DNA from: Rickettsiales bacterium
Lineage (GTDB): Bacteria; Pseudomonadota; Alphaproteobacteria; G027485855
Assembly (NCBI GenBank): GCA_027485855.1
Contig: JAIXQD010000021.1
Location: 178,700-242,699, forward strand
Direction: 5' to 3'
Length of the DNA: 64,000 nucleotides
Part shown: positions 23,335 to 43,483 of the stretch, piece by piece
How the letters are laid out: each line of letters opens with the position of its first letter
Position numbering within the stretch: position 1 is the stretch's first letter
Translations under genes and position numbers: made by a program
Notes under the pieces: generated by a model
Told to the model about the DNA's origin: nothing
The model's input: only the letters and a program-made list of their open reading frames with translations
Database searches by the model: none

Positions 23335-24294
23335 TCAAGAAAATGGTATTTTTGAAAGCTTGATTTCAACGCTGTTCCAATTATTTTCCAACAATATTTT
23401 TTTCAGCCAGGCTTGCATGGTAACGGGTGCTAGCGGGCCAAGCCATATGGCCTTCAAATCTTTTTCTTGCAGTGGCAGCACTAAAGGCACTTTCGCTTCA
23501 CCCCCAATTTTCTTAGTAGGAAGATAACGGGGGGTGCGATCGGCGCGAATAATTCTTAAGAAACGAGTTTCTTTTTCTTTTGAAAACTTTTCCGGCTTAT
23601 ACTCCGTACAGTGCGGCAAGCAGTTAGAGGCTAGTAGAGTTGACATCTCGCGCAGAAATAACCAACCCTCATCTTTATTTGGGTTTGCTGCCTCCAAGCC
23701 CCGATTGACGCAGTCCATACATTTTTCAATGATAGGCCTCAAGACACATCGCAACACTTCATCATCGTAAAAAACTTCAAACACTGGCGAAGTACCATTG
23801 GAAAAACAACCATCATCATTCTCTAGTGTATCAGTAAAATTTTCTGAAAACCCTGAAGCAAATTCAAGACAAACGCCCTCTCCATTATCTGCAAACTCCA
23901 TCCACAGGTGCGGATCATCCTGTAGGCCGCTGGCGCAGAATAAAAAGAACTGGCCGGATTGCTCTATATTGACCTGCAAAATTTTTTTAAATTTTTCTAT
24001 GAAAAATTTTGCACCGGGGTGCATAACTTTAGACGAATGTTCGTCTAATAGTTGGTAACAAATGTCCACCCCAGATCGGATTTCGAAAGGATCGCTTTTT
24101 TGCGTAAAAATATTTGTGAACCATAAAACACGACTAGAGAGAATCCCTTTCAACGCGCTTACTTTGGTATAATGAAAGAGGAGGTGACTTACTTTAGAAT
24201 ATGTGGCTGCACCATTCTTTTCTAGAAAATCAAAGAACTCTTTGTATGCAGGCGCGGTTATCGTTAGAAGCATAGTAAGCCATAATATGTACAA
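23335..24294 (-). CDS. DUF2971 domain protein
   Basis: LFHYT, LWFTN...DPFE, LWMEFADNGEGVCLEF, K..KFSKEKETR, IWLGP. Confidence 0.8.
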   Translation of the reverse strand: MYILWLTMLLTITAPAYKEFFDFLEKNGAATYSKVSHLLFHYTKVSALKGILSSRVLWFTNIFTQKSDPFEIRSGVDICYQLLDEHSSKVMHPGAKFFIEKFKKILQVNIEQSGQFFLFCASGLQDDPHLWMEFADNGEGVCLEFASGFSENFTDTLENDDGCFSNGTSPVFEVFYDDEVLRCVLRPIIEKCMDCVNRGLEAANPNKDEGWLFLREMSTLLASNCLPHCTEYKPEKFSKEKETRFLRIIRADRTPRYLPTKKIGGEAKVPLVLPLQEKDLKAIWLGPLAPVTMQAWLKKILLENNWNSVEIKLSKIPFS

Positions 24295-24743
24295 TGCCCA
24301 TCAGCCATCATATTCAAGCATTGCAGATTTGTTTGCGCTTGTTGAGAATATACACCAGTACAGGCGGTCAGCAAAAGACGGGGGCAGATTATGACCGTGA
24401 TATTTATCATTTCTATACTTTAATATTTTAAAACGACTTTGTAAATTTACAAATTCTGTGTAACTGAGAATCGGATTTGGATTTTTAATTAAGCTGTCTC
24501 TGATGGGATGGTCTGCCTGAAAGCGCCAAGACAAGCGCGCTACCAAGCTTACTGATTAAAAAGCTCCGTACCAACAAGATCACAAAATAGGTTTCTGTAG
24601 GTCTTGGCTATACATTTCCTGTCCCACAGCATTATCAATAACATATCTTTTGAGCAATCATTTTATTGAGATTATCTCATGCTAAAATGGATGTTGATGG
24701 TTTGCCTTAAGGGGAAAAGATATTTTTCTTGTTAAAAAGGGCA

Positions 24744-26039
24744 CTACCTTTGCCAACCATCAATTTTAAAAACACGTTCTAGGAGCTTGCGTTCTGGCCC
24801 GCCAGAAGCAGGGGCAAACCAAACCTCAAACCGAGCGGCATAATATTGCTCCCAGTCGCCTTCGTAAATCATAATATGAGAGTTCGATAGAAACTGCTCT
24901 TGGTTATTATCCGACCAGCCTATCCATTCACTGGAGTCTTGCTTTAAATCATCTTCAGAAAGAGGTGTGTTTTTTGTAACTTCAAAAGCCTTAAGATAAA
25001 CCATGCCTCGTTCCCCAGGATTAGCGCGGATATAGACATCATATATCCCATTTGACCCGGAAATATCTAACGAGGGGGGCCCCATGCTGATGCTGCTTGC
25101 AGGAAGCATGCTTTTTATTTGCTCCCAATCACTGAGAGTTAAAAAGCGTTTAAATTCTTGGTTGAGGTATGACAGGGATGCTTCGGTAATGCGGCGCTGT
25201 TTGGCAGAAGACTGCTCCATAATCTCAACTAATAAATTATTTTCCTTTATACTCACATAACTCCCATACTGCGCAAATTGTCTACGCTCTTGCCTCAAAA
25301 TAACATCTTGTTTCTGACCACAACGCAACAAGGTGACACCTACATTACCAAAAGAAGAATCGGCTGAAAAACTTATAGTTGTTCTGGTCTGAAACTGCTT
25401 GTCTGGCCCACTCTGCCATCGTTTGAGGCCAGAACTTGTGTAATTAGCATGAAGTGTCGTTTGCCAGATGCCATCCACAACCCACCGCCGCGTAGCGAAA
25501 AGCGTGCCGTGCCGCGTATATAAACGCCAGGCAGGATGAGCGGCAAGATATCGCAGCAGATTTTCACTATTATTTAGGTAGGCTGTAACAAGGCTGGACA
25601 TATCGCATGATATGGTCGCGTTATCGCTGCCAGAATTATTCAGGCTATTTAAAACTGTTTGTTGAAAAGGGTCGTCAGTAACGGCGGAGATTGTTCCTTT
25701 AATATTCCGCGTGTTTACGACTTCGATATCTGTGGGTATGGTAAGATTCTTTGCAAAATCATCACCACTTGGGCCGAATAACCACATAAAAGTAAAAACC
25801 ACGGATAACACTTTGAGTAAAATAAGAAATGAAAAAAGATTAATTGCAGATTTTAGCCATCTTTTTTTAAAAAGATTAACGATTGAAACCACAAATACGC
25901 CTGCAAGAGCAATATTCACCAGTAATAAAATGCCTGAATTCATAGGCCCTATAAATAGATAAGCAATAGCCAGTGAAACTGTGATGACTGATGGTATCCA
26001 AAAACTTGAATTATAGGCCTTCCAAAATCTTTTAATCAT
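24744..26039 (-). CDS. Hypothetical membrane-anchored protein (3 N-terminal TMs, large soluble domain)
   Basis: 431-aa ORF, AGGAG RBS; C-terminal YEGDWEQYYAARFEVWF. Confidence 0.75.
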   Translation of the reverse strand: MIKRFWKAYNSSFWIPSVITVSLAIAYLFIGPMNSGILLLVNIALAGVFVVSIVNLFKKRWLKSAINLFSFLILLKVLSVVFTFMWLFGPSGDDFAKNLTIPTDIEVVNTRNIKGTISAVTDDPFQQTVLNSLNNSGSDNATISCDMSSLVTAYLNNSENLLRYLAAHPAWRLYTRHGTLFATRRWVVDGIWQTTLHANYTSSGLKRWQSGPDKQFQTRTTISFSADSSFGNVGVTLLRCGQKQDVILRQERRQFAQYGSYVSIKENNLLVEIMEQSSAKQRRITEASLSYLNQEFKRFLTLSDWEQIKSMLPASSISMGPPSLDISGSNGIYDVYIRANPGERGMVYLKAFEVTKNTPLSEDDLKQDSSEWIGWSDNNQEQFLSNSHIMIYEGDWEQYYAARFEVWFAPASGGPERKLLERVFKIDGWQR

Positions 26040-26330
26040 ATTCGGCTCCTACATCTTAAGTCTTCAAAATTCCATTCGCAGTTTTTTTTCAGACTTTGAA
26101 TAGGGGGTTCATTGCACAAGCTGTTAGCTAGAAAACTCCGTAGCAGTACTGAGCCCGCATATATTTCTTCGAGTTTTAGCTTATGTTCTCTGCAAGCCGC
26201 TTTGTTCATCAATATATAAGTAAGGCGGTGGTTTTGAAAGATATTGAAGTTATGTTGCGCCTCCGACGTCCAAAATGCTTATGCGCATTTTGTCGAACCC
26301 GCGACGCTTCTTTCCTATCCAATCCCAGTC

Positions 26331-26365
26331 ATAAATAAAGGGGCCAAAAAGGCCCCTTTATTTAT
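26331..26365 (-). terminator. Hairpin terminator after tRNA-Ser
   Basis: Perfect 15-bp inverted repeat ataaataaaggggcc-aaaaa-ggcccctttatttat. Confidence 0.8.
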
Positions 26366-26458
26366 GGCGGAGACGGAGGGATTCGAACCCTCGATACAAG
26401 TTTAAGCTCGTATAACGGTTTAGCAAACCGCCGCCTTCAGCCACTCGGCCACGTCTCC
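26365..26458 (-). tRNA. tRNA-Ser(GCT)
   Basis: GGAGACGTGGCCGAGTGG...GCGGTTTGCTAAACCGT...long variable arm...GGTTCGAATCC...CGTCTCCGCCA. Confidence 0.97.
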
Positions 26459-26535: not shown

Positions 26536-27474
26536 TTATTTGCTTTGTTGCTGGCGGTTTTTGGGCGCATTTTTAGCATCACTTTTAACAGGCACACGAC
26601 TGGTTAAAGCATGGCATAAAATAGCGGCTGTGGCGGCAACATTAAGCGATTGCACCTGCCCGCTACCTGGTAAATAGAGCCATTTTTCGCAGGCTTTGCG
26701 GGTGGCTGCGGTAAGGCCGGTTTCTTCTTGCCCCAGTACTAAAATAATTGGCCTTGTTGGCAAATCGGCCGGGTTGGTTATAAAGCGCGCATCGGCGTTA
26801 TTTTTCTCAGTTTTATTTGCTTTACTATTGTTTACATCGGGCAAAGTTGTGCCAACGATGCAAAAGCTATTTGATAATTGCCGCAGCAACACTGGCAAAT
26901 CGGCCGTGGCGCTTAAGCGCACCGCCTCTAGCCCGCCCTCGGCAATACGATAAGCCGCATCAGGCAGGCTGGTGGGCAGCTCTTTTACACCCAGCAAAAT
27001 ATCGCTGACGCCGAAAAATGCAGCCGTGCGCGCAATTGCGCCAATATTATGCGGGTTGCCCAATTGCTCGAGCGCCAAAATAAGCCGTGGCGGCTGTCTT
27101 TGCCACTCACCCACCGGTGCGGGCGATATTGCCGAGGCCAGCACCACCGCAACAAGCCCACCATGATGCGGCGTTGCGGTGATTTTTGCTAATTCATCGG
27201 CCGACATTTGCCGGTAAGCGCATTTTTGCTCGGCCAAATATTTGCAAATAGGCCCCGCTTTTTGTTTTTGCTCGGGGGTGTAGTAAAGCCGAATAATATC
27301 GCTTTTGCGGCTGGCAAATAATGCCGTTACTGCCGATACACCGCACACATGCCGCCATTTAGGCGCCGCTGCAGGCTTTGCTTCGGGCATATTTTGGGCC
27401 GTGTTTTGAGCTTGCGGCGCAGGCAGTGGGCGCTGGGGACGCTGGGGGGTAAAACGCGAAGAATGGTTAGCCAT
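26536..27474 (-). CDS. TrmH/SpoU family RNA 2'-O-methyltransferase
   Basis: [35 protein letters not shown]; likely start ATG 27474. Confidence 0.9.
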
Positions 27475-27621
27475 GGGCTGGTTATAACTTATTCTTGGCG
27501 CCACAGCATAGAGAATTGCACAAAACCCCATCTTTCGATATGTTTCGTCGCCAGGCGCCCGCATATTTGCAGCGTCTCGGCTTTGCCCTATAATTTACCT
27601 AATATATCACCAGAGGCCGCT

Positions 27622-28656
27622 ATGCGTATTTTAGAAGATGTAAAACTTGATTTTGACGATGTGCTGCTTTTGCCCAAGCGCAGCCGCTTGGCCTCGCGTT
27701 CAGAGGTGGCCCTCAATCGTAGCTTTACCTTTATGTATAGTGGCGAAGTGATTGATAGCGTGCCGGTTATGGCCGCAAATATGGATACCGTCGGCACGCT
27801 TGAAATGGCTACAGCCTTGGCCGAGCATAAAATGCACACAGCGCTGCATAAGTTTTATTCAATTGAAACACTGACAGAATTTTTTGCGTTACCCGCCGCC
27901 AGCTATAGCTGGTACAGCATGGGCATCACTGAAAATGATTTTGAAAAATTTAACGCCACACTCAAAGCGGGTGCTGCTATTAAGCGCGTGGTTATGGATG
28001 TGGCCAATGGCTATCAGGAAGTATTTGTCGATGCGGTGCGGCGCGTGCGCAAAGCCCACCCCAGCCTTACCATTATGGCCGGCAATGTTGTCAGTGGCGA
28101 GATGACCGAAGCACTTATTTTAGCCGGCGCCGATTGTGTAAAAGTTGGCATAGGCCCTGGCAGTGTTTGCACCACACGCAAAGTAACCGGCGTTGGTTAC
28201 CCGCAGCTATCGGCGATAATTGAATGTGCTGATGCAGCGCATGGTTTAGGCGGGCAAGTGTGCGGCGATGGCGGCTGCAAAGTGCCCGGCGATGTCGCCA
28301 AAGCATTTTGTGCAGGCGCCGATTTTGTCATGCTGGGCGGCATGCTGGCAGGCCATGATGAATCGGCCGGCGAGCTGATTGAACGCAACGGCAAAAAACT
28401 TAAGCTTTACTATGGCATGTCGTCTGAAGTAGCGATGACCCGCCATCATGGTGGGGTGGCTAAATATCGCGCCCCCGAGGGGAAGGCCGTAGAAGTGCCC
28501 TATCGCGGGCCGGTGCTTAACACGGTGCAAGAGATATTGGGCGGCATTCGCTCGGCAGGCACATATATTGGCGCAAGACGGCTGAAAGAATATAGTAAAC
28601 GCGCAACTTTTGTGCGCGTTTCCCGTCAGCTTAATACGGTTTTTGGCGATAGCTGA
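27622..28656 (+). CDS. guaC: GMP reductase
   Basis: [48 protein letters not shown]; no CBS domains; start ATG 27622. Confidence 0.95.
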
Positions 28657-28801
28657 AAATAAAAAGCCATAAATCCGGCTTGCAACTATTAAAATACTAG
28701 AGAGCATGCACTGCAATACGTTATGGTATTTGCATAGAGGTCATATGACCAAAATTATTTAATAAAAAGACATATTTGCAATCTAAATCAGGGATATAGA
28801 G

Positions 28802-31800
28802 ATGAATCAGGATCAAGATAAACTGAACATCACTCTTAACTATCGCAAAGGCGGCGTCATTGAAGCCCAAAAATTTGCGGCCACTAACCCGCTTTTAGTC
28901 AGCTATAACGCTGGCATAGAGCAGGATAATAATAGCAAGCGCACATTTATCTCGCTGGCCTCGCTTTTGGCCAACAGCATCAGCGCTGATAGCAGCTATA
29001 TTACCCGCAGCATTGAAACGGCAGGTGGCGATATTGCCATCTTGCGCCGCACACTTGAAGCCATCAATGCCAACATTCCGCCTGCCAAAAGCGGGCAAGC
29101 CCTTGATGAGGGCTGTCACGCACCAATTTTTTTAGCCGCACAAGCCGCCGCCGAAAAAATGGGCGATGAGTTTGTCAATACCGACCATCTTATTCTGGCA
29201 CTGCTCAATGGCGTTGAGGCCGAGCACCCAACTGCTGTTAATCACGCGGCACAGCTGAGTGCGGCTTTAAGCAATGCCGGCCTTACTGCTCAATCCTACA
29301 AAAAAAGCGTGCTTGATTTACGTCGCGGGGCGCGCATTAAAACACAATTTGACGGCGAAAATTTTGGCACGCTTGGCCTTTATACCAAGCTGATTGCCGC
29401 AGCAGGTCAAGAGCGCACGCCCTTTATGAACCGCAGCGAAGAAATGCGCCGCATTGAAAAGCAAATTGCTAAAACTGAGGGTAATTCGGTTTGGCTGACG
29501 GGCGAGTTTGGCGTTGGCAAAACTGCACTGGTTGAAGCTTTTGCCGCACGCTTAGCCGATGGCCAAACCCCGCGCCAACTGGCAGGGCGCAAGCTGCTTA
29601 AGCTTGACCTCAGCCGCTTTATTGCCGGCGCTGGCAATGAGCTAGATACACGCTTTAAGGCGCTGTGCGATGAAGCCGAAGCCGATGGCGATAAAATTCT
29701 TTATATCGACGAAATTGAGCGCCTGTTGCTTGATAATGGTTCGGTGCGCGCCAGCTTAGCCATTATTTTAAACGATGTGGTCAGCCGTGGGCAGTTACCC
29801 ATTATTGCCACCTCAGACGGTGGTCGCGCCGAAGTTTTAAGCACGGCTGACCAAAGCCTGTTCAAAAAATTTGAGCGTATTCGTTTGCAAGAGCCAAGCG
29901 ACGATTTAGCCCGCGAGATGCTTTATGCTCACCGCGACAGCATTGCTGCACGTCACGGCGTTGAGATTGAAGACGAGGCTATTGCCCGCGTTATCAAACA
30001 AACCAAGCGCTATCAGTCGGATGAAAAATTCCCCAAAAAAGCCATTGATGCGCTTGATGAGGCCGCGAGCCTTGTGGCCATCCGTGCCGAGCGCCCCGAA
30101 GTGCTGACCAGCAAAGATGAGCAGCTCATTCTTATGGTGGCCGAGCTCGACAGCTTGAAAAACAAAAGCGATGATGCCAGTGCGCAGCGTCAAAAAATAC
30201 TGCAAGAGCAATTTGATAAGCTGGAAGATGAGCTCACTGCGCTCGAACAGCAGTGGGAAAATGAGCAAAGCCTGCGCATGGCTGTCGAAACCGCTCGCAG
30301 CAGCTTGCAGCAATCAGAAAATAAATTGCAGCAACTGAAGCAAGAGCGCGAGCAGCTTGGCCAAGGCCAGCAAGTGCTGCAAGCGGCAAATGCCAATGGC
30401 GACAATCATCAAGTGGCCGCGCCCGTCAGCAAAGACATTGTGGAAAAGCGCCAGCGCATCGAAGCCGACATCAAGCGCGCTGAAATGCGTGATTTACCCG
30501 CCCAACGCACTGCGCTGAGCGAAGCTGAAAAAAATCTGGCCGCACTTGGCGATAATCGCTTGGCGCAATTAGTGGTAACGCCAAAAGATATTGACCAGGC
30601 CTTAACGGTAGCAACCGGTATCCCCATTGGTCAGGGCGATGATGAAGCCAAATATGCGCCAGGCGCTATTGAAGCCGCACTTGAAAAACGCGTGGTGGGC
30701 CAAAAGAAAGCTGTCAGCATTGTGGCCGAAGGTATTCGTCGTGCTAAAAAGGGCCTTAATGATGCAGGCAAGCCGCTGCTGGTGGTGTTTTTTGCCGGCC
30801 CCTCGGGCGTTGGTAAAACCGAATTAGCCAAAGCCACCGCCGAGTTTGAATTTGGCGGCGAAGATCGGGTTATTCGTTATGATATGGGCGAATATACCGA
30901 GCCACACACAGTCTCGACCTTGTTGGGCGCCCCTCCTGGCTATCAAGGCAGCGAGCAAGGCGGCAAGCTGGTCAATGACATCAATAATGCGCCCTACTCG
31001 GTGCTGTTATTCGATGAAATTGAAAAAGCGCACCCCAGTCTGTTTCCTATTTTGCTCAAGCTGCTCGATGAAGGCAAAGTCACTGACCGTCAGCACAACA
31101 CCGCTGATGCGCGTAACTGCATTATCGTCATGACCTCGAATGTGGGTAAGGAATATTTCGAGCAATTTAAAAATGGCAGTATTAAAACGCCGGAAGAGCT
31201 TAATCGTTTGGTCAAAGAAGCCTATAATGAGCGCTTCCCCGTTGAATTGCGTGGCCGTATTAGCTCGGGCTTCACCATCTTTAATTCGCTCGACCCCAAA
31301 GTGACGCGGATGATTATCCCCATTCAAACACGCAAGCTGAATAAGCTGATGGATGAGCGCCAAGTGAAAGTGGCCCTCACCCCCAGCGCCGAAGATTGGT
31401 TGGCCAAATATGGCTACGACCCCAATTTGGGCGCCCGTCCGCTGAATAATTTGTATCGGGATATTATTGTCAATGGCGTAGCCAAGCTGGTCACCGATGG
31501 CATGCTGCTGCCCGGTCAAGATGTGAGCGTGGATGTGCAACCACAAAAAGTGACAGTGCAAAGCCACATCACCTCGGCCGAGGAGATCATGAAAATTGTT
31601 GATGGTCTGGACGAGTTCAAACCCACCATTCAAGAGCTGCAAGAGCAATTACAAAAACTTTGCAGCAAATTAAGCTATGCTGAATTGACACAAGATAACC
31701 CGCCCGTAGAAGAGATGCACGAAATTGAAGTGCCATGGCCTACGCTTAAAGTGAGTGACCGCTTGCGTCCGGCGCCCGCAATTAACATTGCCAACGCTAA

Positions 31801-31885
31801 AGCCGATATTACCGGCCAAGGCAACAAAGGGCCAGAACGCCCCACAACGGCGCCCATCACAAGCAACGCCGCCACTTTAGGCTAA
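28802..31885 (+). CDS. Divergent ClpB-like double AAA+ ATPase, copy 1
   Basis: Clp-N (GDEFVNTDHLILALL), GEFGVGKT, IDEIE, coiled-coil M domain, GPSGVGKTE, GAPPGYQG, FDEIEKAH, GARPL. Confidence 0.9.
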   Translation: MNQDQDKLNITLNYRKGGVIEAQKFAATNPLLVSYNAGIEQDNNSKRTFISLASLLANSISADSSYITRSIETAGGDIAILRRTLEAINANIPPAKSGQALDEGCHAPIFLAAQAAAEKMGDEFVNTDHLILALLNGVEAEHPTAVNHAAQLSAALSNAGLTAQSYKKSVLDLRRGARIKTQFDGENFGTLGLYTKLIAAAGQERTPFMNRSEEMRRIEKQIAKTEGNSVWLTGEFGVGKTALVEAFAARLADGQTPRQLAGRKLLKLDLSRFIAGAGNELDTRFKALCDEAEADGDKILYIDEIERLLLDNGSVRASLAIILNDVVSRGQLPIIATSDGGRAEVLSTADQSLFKKFERIRLQEPSDDLAREMLYAHRDSIAARHGVEIEDEAIARVIKQTKRYQSDEKFPKKAIDALDEAASLVAIRAERPEVLTSKDEQLILMVAELDSLKNKSDDASAQRQKILQEQFDKLEDELTALEQQWENEQSLRMAVETARSSLQQSENKLQQLKQEREQLGQGQQVLQAANANGDNHQVAAPVSKDIVEKRQRIEADIKRAEMRDLPAQRTALSEAEKNLAALGDNRLAQLVVTPKDIDQALTVATGIPIGQGDDEAKYAPGAIEAALEKRVVGQKKAVSIVAEGIRRAKKGLNDAGKPLLVVFFAGPSGVGKTELAKATAEFEFGGEDRVIRYDMGEYTEPHTVSTLLGAPPGYQGSEQGGKLVNDINNAPYSVLLFDEIEKAHPSLFPILLKLLDEGKVTDRQHNTADARNCIIVMTSNVGKEYFEQFKNGSIKTPEELNRLVKEAYNERFPVELRGRISSGFTIFNSLDPKVTRMIIPIQTRKLNKLMDERQVKVALTPSAEDWLAKYGYDPNLGARPLNNLYRDIIVNGVAKLVTDGMLLPGQDVSVDVQPQKVTVQSHITSAEEIMKIVDGLDEFKPTIQELQEQLQKLCSKLSYAELTQDNPPVEEMHEIEVPWPTLKVSDRLRPAPAINIANAKADITGQGNKGPERPTTAPITSNAATLG

Positions 31886-31897
31886 GGGAGCGACAAA

Positions 31898-34800
31898 ATG
31901 AACCAAGGTCAAGAACCAACTTTTGATGTGCTGCTCAACGACCGCAGCACTAATGTGCCCAGCAAATATGGGGTGAATATGACGAGCGCTTTGCAGCGCT
32001 ATTATAACAGCGGTCTTGAGCAAGATGCTCAATCTGCACCAGGCACACAAGGCAAAGATTATAGCAACCTTGCTTCTATTTTATTGGCCGCGCTCGCCAG
32101 CGAAGAATCTTATATCTCGCGCGCAATCAGCAAAGCGGGCGGTGACCGCACCGTGCTTGTACGTGGCCTGCAGCAAGTTTGGCAAGATATCCCCAAGAGC
32201 GCCGATGGTATCGTCAAGGATTTAGGCTATCTTGCGCCAATTTTTGCTGGTGCAGATAATGTACGCTTAACCATGGGTGATAAATTTCATAATACCGATC
32301 ATCTGGTAGCTGCCCTGCTGCAAGGCGAATATCAGCCAAGCTCAACGGCAATGACTGCGCATTATACCAAGCTGCAAGAGGCTTTTGCCAATGCCGGTAT
32401 TGATGCCGATATTTGGCAAAAAACTATCGAAGAAATGCGCCATGGTGCACGCATTGGCAGCCGCATGGATGGTGAGCTATTTGATAGTCTTGGTCTTTAT
32501 ACCAATGACATGGCCATACTGGCCGTCGAAAAGCCAGAGCCGGTATTTTTAGGCCGCCGCGCCGAGATTGACCGTATCGAAGCACAATTAGCCAAAGCGC
32601 AAGGCAACTCGGCTTGGCTGACGGGTGATTTTGGGGTGGGCAAAACCGCCATTGCCGAAGCCGTGGCCGATCGGATCAGCCTTGAAGAATCTCGCGCCGA
32701 ATTGCGCGGTCGCGTGGTGCTGCGTCTTAATATGAGCAAGCTGATTACCGGACAAGCCGGTGACCCTGCCGACAGATTGCGCGCCATTTGTGACGAAGCT
32801 GCGCGCGATGGCAATAAAATCCTGCTGATTGATGAAGTAGAGCGCCTGCTGCTTGATAATGGCGCTATTCGTGCCAATGTGGCCGTGGTGCTCAATGATG
32901 TGCTCAGTGCGGGCCGCTTGCCCATGCTGCTCACCTCGGATGGCGGGCGGGCTGATGCGCTTTACAGCAATGATGCCAGCCTCTTTGATAAACTAGCGCG
33001 CATTGATGTGCGCGAACCCAGCGCTGAACTTGCCACCGAAATGCTTTATGCCCACCGTGAGCGCATTGAGCAGCTTTATGGCGTAACCATCACCGACGAA
33101 GCCCTGCAACGGGCCGTGGCGCAAACACAAAAATACCAAGCCGATAAGCGCCTACCCAAAAAAGCCGTTGATGCGCTAGAAGCCGCAGCCAGCCAAGTGG
33201 CGCTTGAAAAAGAGCGCCCCGCGCAATTAGTCAAGCTCGCACAAACCCAAGAGAACATCGAAGCCGAGCTGCGTCGTTTAAATGTGCGGCAAGATGCCGC
33301 GGCTCTACAGCGCAAAGCCGAGCTCACCCAGCAACAAGCCGAAGCCGTGAACAGCGAAGCCGAGCTAGAAGCCAAATGGGAGCAAGAGCTTGAAATTTAT
33401 AAAGCCGTGCAGCGCGCCCAAGAAAATATTGTGGCAGCAGAAGACAAGCAATATGAGCTGCGCACGCAAATAGAGCAGTTGGCCGGCGCACAACAACAAA
33501 TGCAGCTGGTAACGGATGGCAGCGAAAGCAAAACTATCAGCACCGCTGCGCCCAGCCTTGCAACCCAGCAGCGCGAATTAAAAACCCAGCTCAAAACGCT
33601 TGAGCGCAAATTGCCGCAATTGCAGCAGCAGCTCGAACAGGCGCAAAAAGCCGCCGCCGACTATGCCCCACATCGCTTGGTTGATGGCACAGTCAATGCG
33701 GTGGATATTGATGAAGCTATCGAGCGCAGCACCGGCATTCGTATTAAACCCGAAGAGACCGATAAATTTGCCAAAGGCAAAATTGAAGCGGCCTTGCGCC
33801 AGCGTGTTGTGGGCCAAGATAAAGCCATTGCCATTGTGGCGGGCGCGGTGCGTCGTGCCGCCATGGGCTTACGCAAAAATGGCAAAACCTTAGGCGTGTT
33901 CTTTTTTGCGGGCCCGTCGGGCGTTGGCAAAACCGAGCTGAGCTTGGCTTTGGCCGAGTTTCTTGGTTACAACATGCTGCGCTATAATATGAATAACTTC
34001 ACCCAAGCGCACACGGTGGCAACCTTGCTGGGCTCGCCCCACGGCTATGAAGGCGGCGGTGGCCCCTTGGTGCGCGACATTAAACAGAACCCTAATTCGG
34101 TTATTCTGCTGGATGAATATGAAAAAGCGCATGCTGATTTCAGCAAAATATTGATGGACCTGTTTGATACCGGCCGCACCACCGATAACCGCAACAACAG
34201 CGCTGACGCCAGCAACTGCTATATCGTCATGACTTCAAACATTGGCGAAGATTACTTCCGCGACTATCGCGATGGCGTGATTAAAACCGAAGCCGAATTG
34301 CTTGATGAAGTCAAACGCGCCTATGAAGAAAAATTCCCAGCGTCGTTCCAAGGGCGCGTTGAGAATTTTATTATCTTTAATAATCTTGACCCTGCGGTCA
34401 CGCGCGAAGTTGTGCCGCTGCAGCTGCGCAAACTCAACGAGCAGTTCAAAGATAATAAGCTCGACATCACCATGGACGCCGCAACCTCGGCCTGGCTGGC
34501 CGAACATGGCTATGACCCACATAAAGGCGTGCGCCCCTTACAAAACTTGTTTGATAAAGTGGTGGCCAATGGCGTGAATGATTTATTCATGGATGGCGAT
34601 TTATTGCCCGGCCAGCAAGTGAGCATTACGCTGCAACCGCAGACAGTGCAAATTCAAACACACGCCAGCGCCGAAGATGTTGATGCACGCATTTTCAGCC
34701 ATAAGATTTTTTACCCAACGCTGGCGCAAGCCGAAGCTGAGTTGCAAAAACACTTCAGCAATTTAAGCGATGCCGATAAGAGCCGTGGTGCTGCGCCAGA

Positions 34801-34960
34801 GGCGATGCATAGCGTAGAAGTCATGTGGCCAAGCTTTACAATTACCGACAAATTAGCCGCAGTGCCCGCTATTGAGCTTGGCACACAAGAAGAAGGGCCC
34901 GTACGTCGGCCCAAAGCTGCGGCTGCTGGTGGCAAGCCCGCACCACTAGCCAATAGCTAA
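31898..34960 (+). CDS. Divergent ClpB-like double AAA+ ATPase, copy 2
   Basis: Same architecture: GDFGVGKT, IDEVE, M domain, GPSGVGKTE, GSPHGYEG, LDEYEKAH, GVRPL; 12 bp after copy 1 with GGGAG RBS. Confidence 0.9.
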   Translation: MNQGQEPTFDVLLNDRSTNVPSKYGVNMTSALQRYYNSGLEQDAQSAPGTQGKDYSNLASILLAALASEESYISRAISKAGGDRTVLVRGLQQVWQDIPKSADGIVKDLGYLAPIFAGADNVRLTMGDKFHNTDHLVAALLQGEYQPSSTAMTAHYTKLQEAFANAGIDADIWQKTIEEMRHGARIGSRMDGELFDSLGLYTNDMAILAVEKPEPVFLGRRAEIDRIEAQLAKAQGNSAWLTGDFGVGKTAIAEAVADRISLEESRAELRGRVVLRLNMSKLITGQAGDPADRLRAICDEAARDGNKILLIDEVERLLLDNGAIRANVAVVLNDVLSAGRLPMLLTSDGGRADALYSNDASLFDKLARIDVREPSAELATEMLYAHRERIEQLYGVTITDEALQRAVAQTQKYQADKRLPKKAVDALEAAASQVALEKERPAQLVKLAQTQENIEAELRRLNVRQDAAALQRKAELTQQQAEAVNSEAELEAKWEQELEIYKAVQRAQENIVAAEDKQYELRTQIEQLAGAQQQMQLVTDGSESKTISTAAPSLATQQRELKTQLKTLERKLPQLQQQLEQAQKAAADYAPHRLVDGTVNAVDIDEAIERSTGIRIKPEETDKFAKGKIEAALRQRVVGQDKAIAIVAGAVRRAAMGLRKNGKTLGVFFFAGPSGVGKTELSLALAEFLGYNMLRYNMNNFTQAHTVATLLGSPHGYEGGGGPLVRDIKQNPNSVILLDEYEKAHADFSKILMDLFDTGRTTDNRNNSADASNCYIVMTSNIGEDYFRDYRDGVIKTEAELLDEVKRAYEEKFPASFQGRVENFIIFNNLDPAVTREVVPLQLRKLNEQFKDNKLDITMDAATSAWLAEHGYDPHKGVRPLQNLFDKVVANGVNDLFMDGDLLPGQQVSITLQPQTVQIQTHASAEDVDARIFSHKIFYPTLAQAEAELQKHFSNLSDADKSRGAAPEAMHSVEVMWPSFTITDKLAAVPAIELGTQEEGPVRRPKAAAAGGKPAPLANS

Positions 34961-37950: not shown

Positions 37951-40404
37951 ATGAGCTCTGACGACGGAGCCCGAATGAGCACAAACGACGCACTTTCAGC
38001 CTTTATGATTATCGATGAAAGCGCTGTGCCGCCCGACCATGCCAGCGCCGATAGCAATCAGCTTGATTATATAGCCTCCACTATTGCTATGCCAAGTTAC
38101 AGCTATGCGGCGGTCAATGTAAGCGCAGCCTTTCCGCATAATTATAATTACAGCGCACAAATTCAAGCAGCAGCACCCATTATCAGCACGCATTATGATA
38201 GCAGCACGCCGCTATATAATGTCGCCAGCGCAAGCGCAACTACAGCTGATACCCCCGCGCTTTTTGCAACCTCGATGAATCTTGGCCCCGCACGCATCAG
38301 CTTCACTGATAATTTTTTTAGTCAGCAATATCATTTTTCAGCAAGCTCAGTTGCCGACACACGCGCGGCCGCCGCTTGGACACAATATACCGGCCGCAAC
38401 ATACGCGTGGCTGTGGTTGATGATGGCTTTGATTATCAGCACCGTGATTTAAGTCTTAACTATAACCAAAACATCGACCGCGATTTTCGCGACAATGATA
38501 TGGATGCGCTTTATCGCACACAAACAGGTGATGCGCATGGCACCGCAGTGATGTCAGTCATCGGCGCTGATAATAACGGCACAGGCATGGTGGGCGTTGC
38601 GCCAGATGCAACATTGGTGGGTATTCGTGTTGGCTTTGGCAGTAGTGGGGTGACGACCTTTGGTGCTGCGCTGGCCTATGGCAGCAATTACGATGTGATC
38701 AATAATAGCTGGGGTTATACATCAGCATTTATTGATAATTTTCAAATGAGCTATATGGCCTCACTGCGCGATGCCATGGTTAATGGCATGAATAATGGTC
38801 GCGGCGGGCTTGGCTCGATTTTTGTTTTTAGTGCGGGCAATAGCCGCAGCTCTGGTGATGCCACCACCTATCATGGCACCACAAATTTTATTGGCACTAT
38901 TACGGTTGGCGCCGTTGATAGCAATGGGCGGGTTGGTGTTTTTAGCACACCAGGCGAGTCTGTTCTGGTATCAGCCGCTGGTGTTGGTGTAATCGCCGCA
39001 GATAACACCATAGGTGGCTATAACAGTGGTGAATATGGAACGATAAGTGGAACATCTTTTTCGGCACCCGTTGTGTCTGGCGTTGTGGCACTGATGCTGG
39101 AAGCCAATAGTCGTTTAGGCTTTCGTGATGTGCAGGAGATTTTAGCCCTGTCCTCGCGTCAAACCGATAGCAGCAATAGCAGCTGGCGATTTAATGGTGC
39201 CGATAATTGGAATGGTGGCGGCATGCATTTTAGCCGCGATTATGGCTTTGGCGTGGTCGATGCTCATGCTGCTGTGCGCCTGGCTGAAGGTTGGAACACC
39301 TCGCGCACTGCGGCAAACATGCAAATGGCCAGCGGCACGGCTAACCCTAATCTTTTTGCGCCTGACAATAATAGCACAGGCGTGAGCTCAAGCATCAACT
39401 TAACCGGCACAAATTTACAGCTCGATAAAGTTATGGTTGATGTACGCCTTGCTAGCAGCACGGGGCAGATGGGCGATGTACGACTAAACCTTATTTCGCC
39501 CGATGGCACAGTGAGCACACTTATCGACCGTGTTAATAATGGGAGCTTTATGTCAAGCTCGTTTAGCTTTAATCTGAGCAGCAATGCATTTTGGGGCGAA
39601 GATAGCAACGGCACTTGGCGTTTACAGTTGGTGGATACTGCCACAAATGTTGGCCGCACTACTTTGCAAAGCTGGACGTTACGCGCCTATGGCGATGCCA
39701 TTGGCAATGACGATACTTACTATTACACCAATGAATTTACCACAGCCACGGGGGCGCGCAGAACTCTTATCGATACTGATGGCGGCCTCAATAGCATTAA
39801 TACCGCTGCGGTTGATGGTACTGTTGTGCTGGCAATGGCCGCGGGCAGCACAGGCTCAAACATCGCTGGGCGCAGCCTTACTATTGGCGCCAGCACCAAC
39901 ATTCATAATGCCGTGACTGGCTCGGGCAATGACTATATTTATGGCAACGGGCTGAACAATGCCATTCGTGGCGGCGCCGGCGATGATCTTATGCAAGGGC
40001 GCGGCGGCAATGATACGCTGGTTGGTGGTGCGGGTGGTGACACACTGAATGGCGGCGATGGTAATGACGTCTTGATTGGTGGCCTTGGCGCGGACATGAT
40101 TATTACCGGCATTGGCACAGATATTGTGACTTACAACAGCATGTCAGATGCAGGTGACACCATTACCGATTTTACCGTTGGCACTGACCGGCTAAATTTT
40201 GTTTCGCTGTTTACCAGCCTTGGCTACAGCGGCAGCAACCCCTTAGCTGATAGTCTGTTGCGGATAACTTATAATAGCTCGGCCAATACAACCATCTTGG
40301 CGATTGATAGCGACCGCACTGGCCCACAAGCCGCCGTAACATTGGCAACCTTGCAAAACACCAGCGCCACACTTGTAGCCACGCGCGATTATTATTGGGT
40401 TTAA
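37951..40404 (+). CDS. Subtilisin/kexin-like S8 peptidase with P-domain and RTX repeats (T1SS substrate)
   Basis: VAVVDDG, HGT, SAGN, GTSFSAP; P-domain (GEDSNGTWRL); GGxGxD nonapeptides; DTITDF tail. Confidence 0.92.
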   Translation: MSSDDGARMSTNDALSAFMIIDESAVPPDHASADSNQLDYIASTIAMPSYSYAAVNVSAAFPHNYNYSAQIQAAAPIISTHYDSSTPLYNVASASATTADTPALFATSMNLGPARISFTDNFFSQQYHFSASSVADTRAAAAWTQYTGRNIRVAVVDDGFDYQHRDLSLNYNQNIDRDFRDNDMDALYRTQTGDAHGTAVMSVIGADNNGTGMVGVAPDATLVGIRVGFGSSGVTTFGAALAYGSNYDVINNSWGYTSAFIDNFQMSYMASLRDAMVNGMNNGRGGLGSIFVFSAGNSRSSGDATTYHGTTNFIGTITVGAVDSNGRVGVFSTPGESVLVSAAGVGVIAADNTIGGYNSGEYGTISGTSFSAPVVSGVVALMLEANSRLGFRDVQEILALSSRQTDSSNSSWRFNGADNWNGGGMHFSRDYGFGVVDAHAAVRLAEGWNTSRTAANMQMASGTANPNLFAPDNNSTGVSSSINLTGTNLQLDKVMVDVRLASSTGQMGDVRLNLISPDGTVSTLIDRVNNGSFMSSSFSFNLSSNAFWGEDSNGTWRLQLVDTATNVGRTTLQSWTLRAYGDAIGNDDTYYYTNEFTTATGARRTLIDTDGGLNSINTAAVDGTVVLAMAAGSTGSNIAGRSLTIGASTNIHNAVTGSGNDYIYGNGLNNAIRGGAGDDLMQGRGGNDTLVGGAGGDTLNGGDGNDVLIGGLGADMIITGIGTDIVTYNSMSDAGDTITDFTVGTDRLNFVSLFTSLGYSGSNPLADSLLRITYNSSANTTILAIDSDRTGPQAAVTLATLQNTSATLVATRDYYWV

Positions 40405-40463
40405 GTTTGTTTCGCTCATGCAGCTATAATCTAATTTTAACAGGCTGCTGCTAAGTTTAATCG

Positions 40464-42164
40464 ATGTTAGTCACCCCCCTTGCCACAGCGCGACAAGCCG
40501 TGAAGCAACAGCTATGGCTGTTAGCGGCCTTTAGCTTTGGCATAAATATTTTGCTGTTTGTGCTGCCGCTTTATTCGCTACAGATTTATGACCGCGTGCT
40601 GACAAGTGGCAGCCTGCCTACTTTAGCCACACTCACGGCGCTAGCCATATTCTTGCTCATCGTGATGTCGTGGCTTGATGGCTTGCGGCAAAATATGCTC
40701 ACCGCTTTAGGCAATTGGCTAGAGCTGACGCTGGGCGCTGCGGTGATGCGGGCAGCCATAAATGCGGCGCTGCTCACGCGCTCGACCACAACCGCACAAG
40801 CCACTTTCGATTTACGGGCTTTACGTAACTTCATCGCCAGCCCCGCAATGCCCGCTTTGTTTGATTATCCATTTGTGCCGATTTTTTTGATATTTTTATG
40901 GTGGGTGCATCCTTGGTGCGGCATTTTTGCGATTATTGTTGGTGCGGCGATGTTACTGCTGACCATACAAAGCGAAAACGCCGTACGCGATATGGTAGAA
41001 AAAAGCAATCTGGCCTCAGCCGAGCTGCAACTACAATCGGAAGTGATTTTGCGCAGTGCCGATGCCTTGCGCGGCATGGGCATGATTGGCAAAGCCGTCA
41101 GCCTTTGGCAAAAACGTAACGAGCATTTAGTGCATTTAAGCGGCACTATGGCCGACCGCAGCGCAACTTTGGCAGCGCTGAGTAAATTTATTCGTTTATT
41201 TGGCCAGCTGGGCATTATGGGCCTCACCGCATGGCTGGTGGTGCGGCAAGAGGTTACGCCCGGCGCCATTATTGCCGTGTCTATTTTATTTGGACGCATT
41301 TTATTGCCCGTTGAGCAAACCATTGGCGGCTGGCGGGCGCTTGTGGCCGCGCGCTTAGGTGCAAAACGACTAGAGCTGCTTTTACAAAAATTTCCATCCG
41401 CACAAAAAGGCATGGCACTGCCAGCACCACAAGGCGCGCTTGAGGCAACGCAACTGGGCTTTCGCCTGCCGCATAGCCTTGAGCCAATAATTCAGAATGT
41501 AAATATCAAAATTGCTGCGGGCGAAACCTTGGCCATTATTGGCCCCACGGCGGCAGGCAAATCTACGTTAGCGCGCCTGCTTTTGGGTATTTGGCAACCC
41601 ACAACCGGCACAGTGCGTTTAGATGGCACCCCTGTTGAAAACTGGCACACTAATGAACAAGCGGCCGATTTTTTTGGCTATTTGCCGCAGGATATTCAGC
41701 TACTCAGTGGCACAGTGCGCGACAATATTGCCCGCAGTGATGCACATACCGATGCCGATGTGCTGGCCGCCGCAAAGCTGGCCGGCATTCATGAAATGAT
41801 AATGCAGCTACCGCGTGCCTATGATACCGAAATTGGCGAGGGCGGGGCTAATTTATCGGGCGGGCAAAGGCAGCGCTTGGCATTGGCGCGGGCAATTATC
41901 GGCACGCCAAAGTTGGTAATTTTAGATGAGCCCAATGCCAATCTTGATGCCGAGGGCGAGGCCAGCTTGGCCCAAGCCATTGCGCATTTAAAAGCGCAAG
42001 GCGTGACAATTTTGCTGGTCATTCATCGCACGCAATTGCTGCACTATGCCGAGCGTATCGCCTTTATGCGGCAAGGGCGGTTAGAGCTGCTCGGCCCCCG
42101 AGAAGAAGTTTTGGCCCAACTACGTGGCACAAAAAAAATTGATACGCAGGGCGCGCCGCCATGA
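40464..42164 (+). CDS. Type I secretion ABC permease/ATPase (PrtD/AprD-like)
   Basis: LYSLQIYDRVL, GPTAAGKST, LSGGQRQR, LDEPNANLD. Confidence 0.95.
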   Translation: MLVTPLATARQAVKQQLWLLAAFSFGINILLFVLPLYSLQIYDRVLTSGSLPTLATLTALAIFLLIVMSWLDGLRQNMLTALGNWLELTLGAAVMRAAINAALLTRSTTTAQATFDLRALRNFIASPAMPALFDYPFVPIFLIFLWWVHPWCGIFAIIVGAAMLLLTIQSENAVRDMVEKSNLASAELQLQSEVILRSADALRGMGMIGKAVSLWQKRNEHLVHLSGTMADRSATLAALSKFIRLFGQLGIMGLTAWLVVRQEVTPGAIIAVSILFGRILLPVEQTIGGWRALVAARLGAKRLELLLQKFPSAQKGMALPAPQGALEATQLGFRLPHSLEPIIQNVNIKIAAGETLAIIGPTAAGKSTLARLLLGIWQPTTGTVRLDGTPVENWHTNEQAADFFGYLPQDIQLLSGTVRDNIARSDAHTDADVLAAAKLAGIHEMIMQLPRAYDTEIGEGGANLSGGQRQRLALARAIIGTPKLVILDEPNANLDAEGEASLAQAIAHLKAQGVTILLVIHRTQLLHYAERIAFMRQGRLELLGPREEVLAQLRGTKKIDTQGAPP

Positions 42165-43483
42165 ACTTGCCAGAAACTACGCCCAACCAAAGTGCCGCGC
42201 TGCAATTGCAAAAAATTCGGCGGCAGGCATTTTTAGGTTTAGTCATTGGGCTTTTTAGCTTGGTGATTTTTCTGCTATGGGCCGCTTTTATGCCACTAGC
42301 CAGCGCCATTGTGGCGCAGGGGCGGCTGATTGTTGAAAGTGGCGCGCAGCAAATTCAGCATTTAGAGGGCGGCATTGTGCGCGAAATATTGGTCACCCGT
42401 GGGCAACATGTTGATGCGGGTCAGGTGCTGCTGCGCCTCGACCAATTACAAGCGGGTGCGTCACTCAGCGCCATTCAAAGCCAGCTTGCCGCGAGCCTTG
42501 CCGAACAAACGCGGCTAGAGGCCGAGCGCAGGGCACAAAATGAGTTGGCCGAACCAAAAAATACCGAAGAGCTGCCGCAAGAAATATGGCAACAAGCATG
42601 GGCAGGACAAAAAGCCCTGTGGCAAAGCCGCCGCGATGTGCGCGAAGGGCGCCTGGCTGTTATGCAACAAAGACGCGCCCAGTTAGCACAAGAAGCCGAA
42701 GGGCTAAACATGCAATTGCAAGCGCTGCAACAACAACGCCAGCTGATTGGCGATGAGATTGTCGATGCCAAACAGCTTTATGAAAAGGGCTATGAGCGCT
42801 TGCCACGCGTGCGTGCGCTTGAGCGTGCTGCCGCCGATCTTGATGGGCGCATTGGCCAGCTTGTTGCCGAGCAAGCCAAAAATCAACACGCCCTCACCGA
42901 GTTAGAATTGCAGCAGCAAGGGCTAGAAAATGAATGGCAAAATGCCATTGCCACCGAGATGCGCACCACCGAGCAAAAATTGGCCGAGTTACGGCAAAGG
43001 CGCAAAAGCGCCAGCGACATTGTGGCGCGTGCCGAGCTGGTTGCACCCGTGGCTGGGGTGATTAGCGATATTATTCCCTATGGCGCGGGCGCTGTGATTG
43101 CTGCAGGCAGCCCGCTTATGACCCTCGTACCCGAGCAAGAAATAATGCTGATTGAAGTGATGGTGCGCCCCGATGATATTGAATCAGTTTCGCCGCAAAT
43201 GCCGGCGCGCATCAGGCTATCGGCCTTCAACCAAAAGCGCGTGCCAGAAATTGATGGCACAGTAATGTTTGTAGCGTCCGACCTCAGCACCGACCCCATG
43301 ACCGGTCAAAAATATTTTAAAGCGCGAGTAGCCCCTGATAGCAAAGCATTAACCGCGTTACAGTTACGGCTGGTGCCGGGCATGCCTGCCGAAGCTTTGA
43401 TTATTACCGGTAGCCGCACGCTGCTAAATTATTTACTAAGCCCGCTTAGTGATGGGCTGCGTCACGCGCTACGCGAGGGCTAA
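42161..43483 (+). CDS. HlyD/PrtE family T1SS membrane fusion protein
   Basis: IQHLEGGIV, coiled coil, APVAG, LVPGMPAE..I.TG.RTLL.YLL.PL. Confidence 0.95.
   Translation: MNLPETTPNQSAALQLQKIRRQAFLGLVIGLFSLVIFLLWAAFMPLASAIVAQGRLIVESGAQQIQHLEGGIVREILVTRGQHVDAGQVLLRLDQLQAGASLSAIQSQLAASLAEQTRLEAERRAQNELAEPKNTEELPQEIWQQAWAGQKALWQSRRDVREGRLAVMQQRRAQLAQEAEGLNMQLQALQQQRQLIGDEIVDAKQLYEKGYERLPRVRALERAAADLDGRIGQLVAEQAKNQHALTELELQQQGLENEWQNAIATEMRTTEQKLAELRQRRKSASDIVARAELVAPVAGVISDIIPYGAGAVIAAGSPLMTLVPEQEIMLIEVMVRPDDIESVSPQMPARIRLSAFNQKRVPEIDGTVMFVASDLSTDPMTGQKYFKARVAPDSKALTALQLRLVPGMPAEALIITGSRTLLNYLLSPLSDGLRHALREG

Follow-up and report, generated by a model that had tools for sequence, protein, structure and literature searches.

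Hsp100 disaggregases are textbook machines built from two coupled ATPase rings, and the share of the first ring in threading as opposed to regulation is debated. Among related systems, ClpV is an unfoldase with a dedicated substrate and no general disaggregation role, and ClpG also carries extra N- and C-terminal extensions. For ClpB, one study describes the second ring (AAA2) as the main threading motor and the first (AAA1) as a regulatory ring, and identifies as key the residues by which each ring can be disabled, R331 and Y251 in AAA1 and R756 and Y653 in AAA2; in that work, mutations of Walker B and the Arg finger in AAA1 strongly reduced disaggregation (PMC6593972). Here, we analysed a 64,000-nucleotide stretch of DNA from a Rickettsiales bacterium (contig JAIXQD010000021.1 of assembly GCA_027485855.1, forward-strand positions 178,700 to 242,699; hereafter the window), in which two adjacent genes, A and B, encode diverged ClpB-like ATPases (Table 1).

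The pair, so far found in one uncultured freshwater alphaproteobacterium, is a natural variant of the double-ring design: nucleotide-binding domain 1 (NBD1) is without the Arg fingers and the gripping loop, yet constrained, and nucleotide-binding domain 2 (NBD2) is complete. We consider it somewhat probable, judging from these motifs, that A and B are a lineage-specific, specialised unfoldase pair of the ClpB/ClpV type, which would work beside a housekeeping ClpB, be driven by NBD2 and use NBD1 as an assembly or regulatory ring. The locus thereby offers a ready-made experiment on whether an Hsp100 protein can run on NBD2 alone, and on the purpose of a nucleotide-binding but "silent" ring.

A degenerate first ring and a complete second ring

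We compared motif states in an alignment of A and B with the ClpB and ClpA of the same genome, other Clp proteins, 266 homologues obtained from two database searches (NBD1 could be aligned in 261 of them) and nine ClpV/TssH proteins scoring over the family cut-off. A first reading of the DNA, made from the letters and translations (the sequence-only reading), had quoted a series of short motifs as evidence for a degenerate NBD1 and an intact NBD2 (IAGAGNEL, ITGQAGDP, LFKKF, LFDKL, GYQG, GYEG, GRI, GRV, GARPL and GVRPL). All of them are present in the translations, and alignment with the genome's own ClpB places them where that reading had them, including the loop that replaces the canonical NBD1 gripping loop (GAKYRG). 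The same reading had been right that the NBD1 Walker motifs are kept: the Walker A Lys is K240 in A and K249 in B, and the Walker B Asp-Glu pair is D303/E304 and D312/E313, respectively. The sensor-1 Thr of NBD1 is changed to Ser in both proteins. Their NBD1 pore loop is two to three residues shorter than that of ClpB, is non-aromatic and has lost the downstream G-E-F-E motif; in B, no position of the loop holds an aromatic residue. The trans Arg fingers of NBD1, R331/R332 in the genome's own ClpB, correspond to K355/K356 in A and D364/K365 in B.

The sequence-only reading had itself raised the objection that the Tyr and Arg residues could be merely shifted. The alignment answers this objection for the NBD1 pore aromatic, whose loss is not a shift, and in part for the fingers: the canonical ones are lost, but a conserved Arg stands three residues past the lost finger in both proteins (R359 in A and R368 in B). 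A second Arg conserved between A and B follows directly after Walker B (R307 and R316). The genome's own ClpB has Pro and Thr where A and B carry these extra Arg residues.

How unusual these losses are can be judged from the homologues, a set enriched for divergent Clp proteins because it was chosen as the database proteins most similar to A. The NBD1 pore position is aromatic in 220 of the 261 aligned sequences and non-aromatic in 41, and an Arg is found at finger 1 in 254 and at finger 2 in 245. All nine ClpV/TssH proteins are without the NBD1 aromatic residue, so a non-aromatic loop alone is a known state; all nine keep both NBD1 Arg fingers. By these alignments, the loss of both fingers is the rarer change. 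Only A and B, in the sets examined, combine the loss of both fingers with the loop deletion, a long M-domain, a Y-Q or Y-E loop in NBD2 and a C-terminal extension.

The catalytic motifs of NBD2 are complete in both proteins. A has the Walker A K672, the pore loop Y714-Q715, the Walker B pair D738/E739, sensor-1 N780, the Arg finger R819 and sensor-2 R879; the corresponding residues of B are K678, Y717-E718, D739/E740, N781, R820 and R879. The alignment thus upholds the earlier statement that the pore Tyr, Arg finger and sensor-2 of NBD2 are retained. The residue after the pore Tyr is Gln in A and Glu in B, where 251 of the 266 homologues have Val or Ile. At the position of the ClpP-docking loop of the genome's own ClpA, neither A nor B has an IGF-type tripeptide, which agrees with the sequence-only reading, and the loop region is longer than that of ClpB.

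The pair and the other Clp proteins of the genome

A and B belong to the Hsp100/Clp class-1 double-ring AAA+ superfamily, with two AAA+ modules per chain, and score far under the NCBIfam cut-offs of all the named families compared. With the two ClpB models, TIGR03346 (cut-off 1232.1 bits) and NF008118 (1417 bits), A reaches 505.4 and 409.9 bits and B 419.5 and 323.2 bits. The respective scores of A and B are 402.3 and 350.3 bits with the ClpV model TIGR03345 (cut-off 884.95 bits), 382 and 367 bits with ClpA (993 bits), 297.6 and 264.2 bits with ClpG (1900 bits) and 293.6 and 248.4 bits with ClpK (1900 bits). PADLOC returned only generic matches of the NBD2 type (DolB and PDC-M37B).

The genome assembly comprises 2.37 Mb in 34 contigs, with 97.8% completeness and 9.5% contamination as estimated from marker genes; the pair lies on contig C10. 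The sequence-only reading had proposed to look for a separate canonical clpB, and had counted the pair's being the genome's only ClpB among the things that would speak against it. Contig C31 carries such a gene: the protein scores 1376.1 bits, over the TIGR03346 cut-off, is about 70% identical to alphaproteobacterial ClpBs and clusters with them, which marks the source as an alphaproteobacterium. A ClpA-like gene is present as well. Neither VipA/TssB (PF05591) nor VipB/TssC (PF05943) had a single match in this 97.8%-complete genome, with a positive Escherichia coli control, and no TssH over the cut-off was found in it, whereas 14 of the 121 alphaproteobacterial genomes searched have one. A search for VirB4 also gave no match. 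The earlier remark that genes of the type VI secretion system are missing agrees with the lack of sheath-gene matches in the genome, and the sub-threshold scores, the separate ClpB and the lack of VipA and VipB together bear out the view that the pair is neither housekeeping ClpB nor ClpV.

Two further atypical Clp proteins are encoded on contig C9. One, of 1122 aa (L008:193-3561, plus strand), has an N-terminal extension of about 440 aa, a canonical NBD1 with an aromatic pore loop and RRFQ, next to no M-domain (50 aa) and a C-terminal tail; it scores under all Clp cut-offs (544 bits for ClpB and 539 bits for ClpA) and forms the longest branch in our tree. The other is a stand-alone Clp-like protein of 290 aa that consists of NBD1 only (L007:1405-2277, minus strand); its pore loop is non-aromatic and it has retained both Arg fingers. 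Its gene lies directly 3' of one for a Gln-rich protein that measures at least 475 aa and is apparently a coiled coil (L007:2281-3708, minus strand) and adjoins an open reading frame (ORF) with a putative patatin-like G-G-G-x-R-G start, a motif read by eye (L007:252-1388, plus strand). Together with ClpB, ClpA, A and B, these two bring the Clp-family genes of the 2.37-Mb assembly to six, several of them atypical. Such a number in a small genome points to a lineage-specific expansion of unfoldases.

Phylogeny and constraint

We placed the pair in a tree of 72 rows and 831 columns (IQ-TREE, LG+C20+F+G4 with posterior mean site frequencies, quick search). A and B form a clade with a support of 100, and its stem measures 1.92 changes per site. 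This clade lies inside a group of ClpB, ClpV and divergent ClpB-like proteins with a support of 99, and outside both the proteobacterial ClpB clade (support 96) and the ClpV clade (support 100). The end branches measure 0.44 for A and 0.89 for B, so that B has changed about twice as fast. The row nearest to the pair, a Saccharibacteria protein (P0243), was rejected as kin: it joins by a long branch and has a short M-domain of 50 aa, the length found in ClpA/ClpC. In a reduced approximately unbiased (AU) test (35 rows, 835 columns, LG+F+G4, fast-search trees), none of three placements was rejected, with p values of 0.52 for free placement, 0.23 for a position with alphaproteobacterial ClpB and 0.65 for one with ClpV. 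The pair could have arisen by a local duplication of clpB followed by fast change, from an old ClpV-like lineage or by transfer.

Since A and B share both the shortened NBD1 loop and the missing fingers, we conclude that their duplication post-dates these changes in NBD1. The two proteins are 53% identical in the large part of NBD1, 55% in its lid, 54% in the large part of NBD2 and 47% in its small part. Identity falls to 40% in the N-domain, 26% in the M-domain and 29% in the structured part of the C-terminal extension. NBD1 has its own conserved motifs, too, some of them around Walker B and in the sequence that follows it. The equal conservation of NBD1 and NBD2 between A and B speaks against decay and in favour of an NBD1 that has kept a role in altered form.

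Search for relatives

The pair is an orphan: in the databases searched, no relative is closer than generic Clp proteins, at about 30-37% identity. A phmmer search of 1.84 billion representative proteins returned B at 836 bits and the next match at 425 bits (29% identity), and a word-indexed search of 5.8 billion clusters found, besides B, ordinary ClpBs at 30-36% identity. The cluster of A is a singleton from one contig. In 41 genomes of the same class, the best non-self matches were ordinary ClpB or ClpV; the nearest genomes of this species set are related to the source at class level only. One genome flagged as unpublished is counted among these 41 and among the 121 searched for TssH, and none of our claims depends on it. 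When residues 200-470 around NBD1 were used as the query against shorter proteins, we obtained four matches, the best of them 34% identical at near-full coverage, and one 39% identical over 31% of the query. Two pair-specific peptide patterns led to 14 loci in JGI metagenome contigs, at 28-34% identity, and a search of the ESM Atlas with the C-terminal extension gave no usable match. In the literature, no tandem Hsp100 pair with a degenerate NBD1 is described in titles and abstracts among the matches listed.

The top non-self phmmer matches to A included three proteins of about 1020-1030 aa (P0121, P0122 and P0133), each with three separate stretches matching NBD2 and with none of the NBD1 motifs aligned; this pattern suggests that they are Clp-like proteins in which NBD2-type modules are repeated.

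Locus and domain architecture

The sequence-only reading described two co-oriented genes 12 bp apart that are clearly paralogous but long diverged, and each part of this description holds: both lie on the same strand, the stop codon of A is followed after 12 nt by the start codon of B, and BLASTP aligned the products over their full length with 445 identities in 1022 positions (44%, E = 0). Both start codons are supported, because the two proteins begin alike (MNQ.Q.). The short spacer with GGGAG eight bases 5' of the ATG of B suggests co-transcription. A consensus scan for sigma-70-like sites found none on the plus strand within 28657-28801, the nearest one on that strand being at 28568-28596.

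ORFs of more than 1000 aa with E-values of about 1e-125 to 1e-151 against ClpB models are not chance features. The GC content of the locus (0.51-0.53) lies within the range of the genome's contigs (0.49-0.55). Moreover, the locus is real, since identical contigs occur in the metagenomes of three studies: Logan contigs from aquatic and freshwater runs cover most of it without differences, except for one single-nucleotide polymorphism in one run; over 6159 bases, one difference was seen. No RNA data set was listed among those with the locus. The junction between A and B is bridged without differences by X1 record 5 (31295-32012) and X7 record 29 (31848-32002). These runs are not all independent, as one may be the source of the assembly.

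Pfam finds AAA, AAA_lid_9, AAA_2 and ClpB_D2-small over their cut-offs in both proteins. Clp_N is weak, over its cut-off of 20.7 bits in A and just under it in B. The order of N-domain, NBD1, long coiled-coil M-domain, NBD2 and D2-small is that of class-1 Hsp100 proteins. An AlphaFold2 (AF2) model of A, based on an alignment of 64 sequences, has a mean predicted local distance difference test (pLDDT) score of 84.3 and a predicted template-modelling score of 0.71, and is confident for residues 30 to about 922. The N-domain is modelled as eight helices and is followed by the two AAA+ modules, and the M-domain is a very long coiled coil with helices of 74 residues (458-531) and 42 residues (539-580); residues 1-28 and 976-1027 are predicted to be disordered and 923-975 are of low confidence. 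Foldseek matched the model to structures of ClpC, ClpB and Hsp104 at the top (probability 1.00), and ClpB heads the PDB matches by sequence. The N-domain of A is 18% identical to that of the genome's own ClpB. The M region, counted from the NBD1 lid to NBD2, spans 209 aa in A and 206 aa in B, against 150-196 aa in the aligned ClpB and ClpV proteins together and 169-172 aa in ClpB; its identity with ClpB is 22-25%, in a part where the alignment is uncertain.

Table 1. Features of the tandem Hsp100 locus, in window coordinates
Feature	Position	Strand	Evidence
Intergenic region 5' of gene A, AT-rich, presumed promoter and ribosome-binding region	28657..28801	+	Sequence
Gene A, divergent class-1 Hsp100 (ClpB/ClpV-type) ATPase, 1027 aa	28802..31885	+	ORF, Pfam, NCBIfam, AF2, Foldseek
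A N-domain (aa 30-175), divergent Clp_N-like helical	28889..29326	+	Partial Clp_N, 27.1 bits; eight helices, pLDDT about 80-95
A NBD1 (aa 206-430)	29417..30091	+	Alignment
A M-domain (aa 431-585), extended coiled coil	30092..30556	+	AF2
A NBD2 and D2-small (aa 586-922)	30557..31567	+	Pfam, alignment
A C-terminal extension (aa 923-1027), without counterpart in ClpB	31568..31882	+	Alignment; AF2 pLDDT 35-66
Spacer between A and B, 12 nt, GGGAG Shine-Dalgarno-like site for gene B	31886..31897	+	Sequence
Gene B, paralogue of A, 1020 aa	31898..34960	+	ORF, Pfam, NCBIfam, BLASTP
B N-domain (aa 31-182)	31988..32443	+	Alignment to A; Clp_N 20.4 bits, under cut-off
B NBD1 (aa 213-439)	32534..33214	+	Alignment
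B M-domain (aa 440-592), 26% identical to that of A	33215..33673	+	Alignment
B NBD2 and D2-small (aa 593-922)	33674..34663	+	Pfam, alignment
B C-terminal extension (aa 923-1020), short conserved blocks in common with A	34664..34957	+	Alignment

Proposed mechanism and alternatives

In the mechanism that we propose, each protein would assemble into the usual two-tier hexamer. The NBD1 tier could still bind nucleotide because its Walker A and B motifs are intact; it would most likely act as a slow or non-hydrolysing ring for assembly and regulation, because the trans Arg fingers are gone and the gripping loop is truncated and non-aromatic. Threading would fall to the NBD2 tier alone, which retains every catalytic residue and the pore Tyr. 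The phrase "powered mainly by NBD2" in the sequence-only reading was derived from motifs, and we likewise read A and B as probably NBD2-driven because the residues known to be key in AAA1 of ClpB are lost here naturally and those of AAA2 are intact. Substrate choice and regulation may come from the divergent N-domains, an M-domain longer by about 40 residues, the Gln or Glu that follows the pore Tyr of NBD2 and the C-terminal extension, which is about 100 residues long; the substrate would presumably be a dedicated one.

Several observations weigh against this mechanism or parts of it. A dead NBD1 need not be compatible with ClpB-like work, because the AAA1 mutations reported for ClpB strongly cut disaggregation (PMC6593972). 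The conserved R307/R316 and R359/R368, together with the Lys pair of A, could support a non-canonical active site in NBD1. The proposed motor itself is atypical in sequence, with Gln or Glu in place of Val or Ile beside the pore Tyr. Because A and B carry the same kind of loss in NBD1, these losses lend no specific support to a mixed ring. As to origin, the AU test rejects neither descent from alphaproteobacterial ClpB nor kinship with ClpV. Lastly, our searches yielded no orthologues or conserved neighbours from which a substrate could be inferred.

A sharper form of the NBD2-driven reading is an obligate hetero-hexamer, in which A and B would alternate in the ring, the NBD1 tier being a pseudo-ATPase and the NBD2 tier active. 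We regard this, as well as the formation of mixed rings in general, as a tentative possibility. It would fit tandem genes 12 nt apart with a Shine-Dalgarno-like site in the spacer, and an old duplication (44% identity) of which both copies have stayed intact. Unequal rates (0.89 against 0.44) and diverged M-domains (26%) and N-domains (40%) are what non-equivalent subunits could be expected to have, and the finger residues are unequal too (Lys/Lys in A, Asp/Lys in B). A precedent among type II AAA+ proteins is Pex1/Pex6, described as a heterohexamer in which ATP is bound by the NBD1 tier but probably not hydrolysed there (PMC5447069). However, the motif losses are not complementary: both proteins keep a full NBD2 and both have lost the NBD1 fingers and pore aromatic, which fits separate rings equally well, and separate action is common among tandem paralogues.

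We think it rather unlikely, going one step further, that the pair forms an obligate A3B3 Hsp100 ring with a pseudo-ATPase upper tier, dedicated to dismantling a lineage-specific assembly and not to general aggregate rescue. We know of no heteromeric Hsp100/Clp unfoldase described in bacteria, although no search aimed at this was made. If an A3B3 ring existed, it could be the first of its kind in bacteria and a prokaryotic parallel to Pex1/Pex6.

Similarly doubtful, to our mind, is that A and B are two separate homo-hexameric unfoldases that differ in substrate or regulation and are merely co-transcribed. Their greatest divergence lies in the N-domain, M-domain and C-terminal extension, the parts expected to select substrates and partners, and each could run alone on its full set of NBD2 motifs. 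Nothing speaks directly against two homo-hexamers; they explain the tight translational arrangement less well.

The pair might also be a stand-alone stress disaggregase, akin to ClpG/ClpK or a second ClpB, in which NBD1 would hydrolyse ATP through non-canonical residues and provide heat or stress tolerance in addition to that given by the canonical ClpB. This alternative can draw on the full ClpB-type layout with its long M-domain and missing IGF loop, on extra N- and C-terminal extensions such as ClpG has, and on R307/R316, R359/R368 and the Lys pair of A. Yet with the ClpG and ClpK models A reaches only 298 and 294 bits and B 264 and 248 bits, where 1900 are required; the canonical finger pair and the gripping aromatic residue of NBD1 are missing, and no heat-shock genes lie nearby. 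Nor was a sigma-32-like site seen 5' of the pair, which is a weak test: the pattern matched once in the window, against 1.65 matches expected by chance, and not 5' of the pair, and we give it no weight. Just 5' of the genome's own clpB, CTTGCA ... CCCACAT (L001:4060-4140, minus strand) resembles a sigma-32-type promoter, and nothing comparable was seen 5' of gene A. Taken together, a stress disaggregase appears quite improbable. That A and B are redundant, decaying paralogues without a function of their own is most improbable, despite the very long stem of 1.92 changes per site, the lost conserved residues of NBD1 and the singleton clusters on one contig, since two intact ORFs of more than 1000 aa persist, neither copy has lost a catalytic residue of NBD2 although they have diverged to 44% identity, and conservation between A and B is as high in NBD1 as in NBD2.

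Gene neighbourhood and other observations in the window

None of the annotated neighbours in the window is a known Hsp100 partner, and the earlier impression that there is no obvious heat-shock context stands, as no heat-shock genes are found nearby. On its 5' side, the pair is preceded by a ribosomal-protein-like run of small genes and by genes for LpxR, a hybrid histidine kinase, a SOUL protein and an OmpR-type regulator. Closer to it follow two genes, one orphan and one DUF2971, in a stretch of 40.6% GC by a tRNA-Ser, a SpoU methylase gene and an IMPDH/GMP-reductase-like gene that ends at 28656. On the 3' side lie an 85-aa ORF that belongs to no family, genes for a DEAD-box helicase and an RTX-repeat S8 subtilase, and an ABC/HlyD pair of type I secretion.

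Within window 23335-26458, the low-GC stretch adjoins the tRNA-Ser(GCT) gene at 26365-26458 on the minus strand, with a GC content of 0.406 at 24-26 kb against about 0.52 elsewhere; its two genes encode a 431-aa product without a family and the DUF2971 protein. This stretch, outside which the Clp pair lies, may be a small island. The SpoU methylase ORF (26536-27564, minus strand) and the IMPDH/GMP-reductase-like ORF (27349-28656, plus strand) overlap by 216 nt on opposite strands, so that at least one of the two genes presumably starts further in than its ORF. At 37951-43483 on the plus strand, the S8 subtilase, which has a P-domain in addition to the RTX repeats, is followed by the ABC transporter and the HlyD-family protein; they are probably a type I secretion substrate and its exporter. 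A 1023-aa ORF at 50219-53290 on the minus strand matches no Pfam family at E <= 1e-5.

Comparison with known systems

A and B share with ClpB/Hsp104 the domain order, with a Clp_N-like domain, NBD1, a coiled-coil M-domain within the NBD1 lid, NBD2 and D2-small, as well as complete NBD2 motifs and the lack of an IGF loop, and their best matches by hidden Markov model and by PDB sequence are to this group. Unlike ClpB, they reach 505 and 420 bits where 1232 are required, have lost the NBD1 aromatic and both fingers, and have an M region longer by about 35-40 aa, Y-Q or Y-E in place of Y-V in the NBD2 loop and a C-terminal extension of about 100 aa. The non-aromatic NBD1 pore loop is a feature in common with ClpV/TssH (nine of nine alphaproteobacterial TssH proteins), and the topology that joins the pair to ClpV was not rejected (AU p = 0.65). 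In contrast to A and B, ClpV keeps both NBD1 fingers (nine of nine); the pair scores 402 and 350 bits against 885, and no VipA or VipB was found in the genome.

ClpG/ClpK and the recently named ClpI of Actinomycetota are comparable as well, being double-ring Clp unfoldases with an accessory role beside ClpB and ClpC. The pair is far under the cut-offs of the ClpG and ClpK models. ClpI is reported to be a phylogenetically distinct third group with intact ATPase modules and an M-domain of ClpC length (PMC10149685), unlike A and B with their degenerate NBD1 and extra-long M-domain. Pex1/Pex6 are similar by analogy only, as two paralogous double-ring ATPases with an NBD1 expected to bind nucleotide without hydrolysis and an active NBD2. 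Together with NSF and p97, these type II AAA+ proteins, machines with one non-hydrolysing ring, differ from A and B in belonging to the classic AAA clade and not to Hsp100/Clp, in being eukaryotic and in having no M-domain. If A and B were to co-assemble, they would extend the principle of heteromeric AAA+ rings of the Pex1/Pex6 and Rpt type to bacterial Clp proteins.

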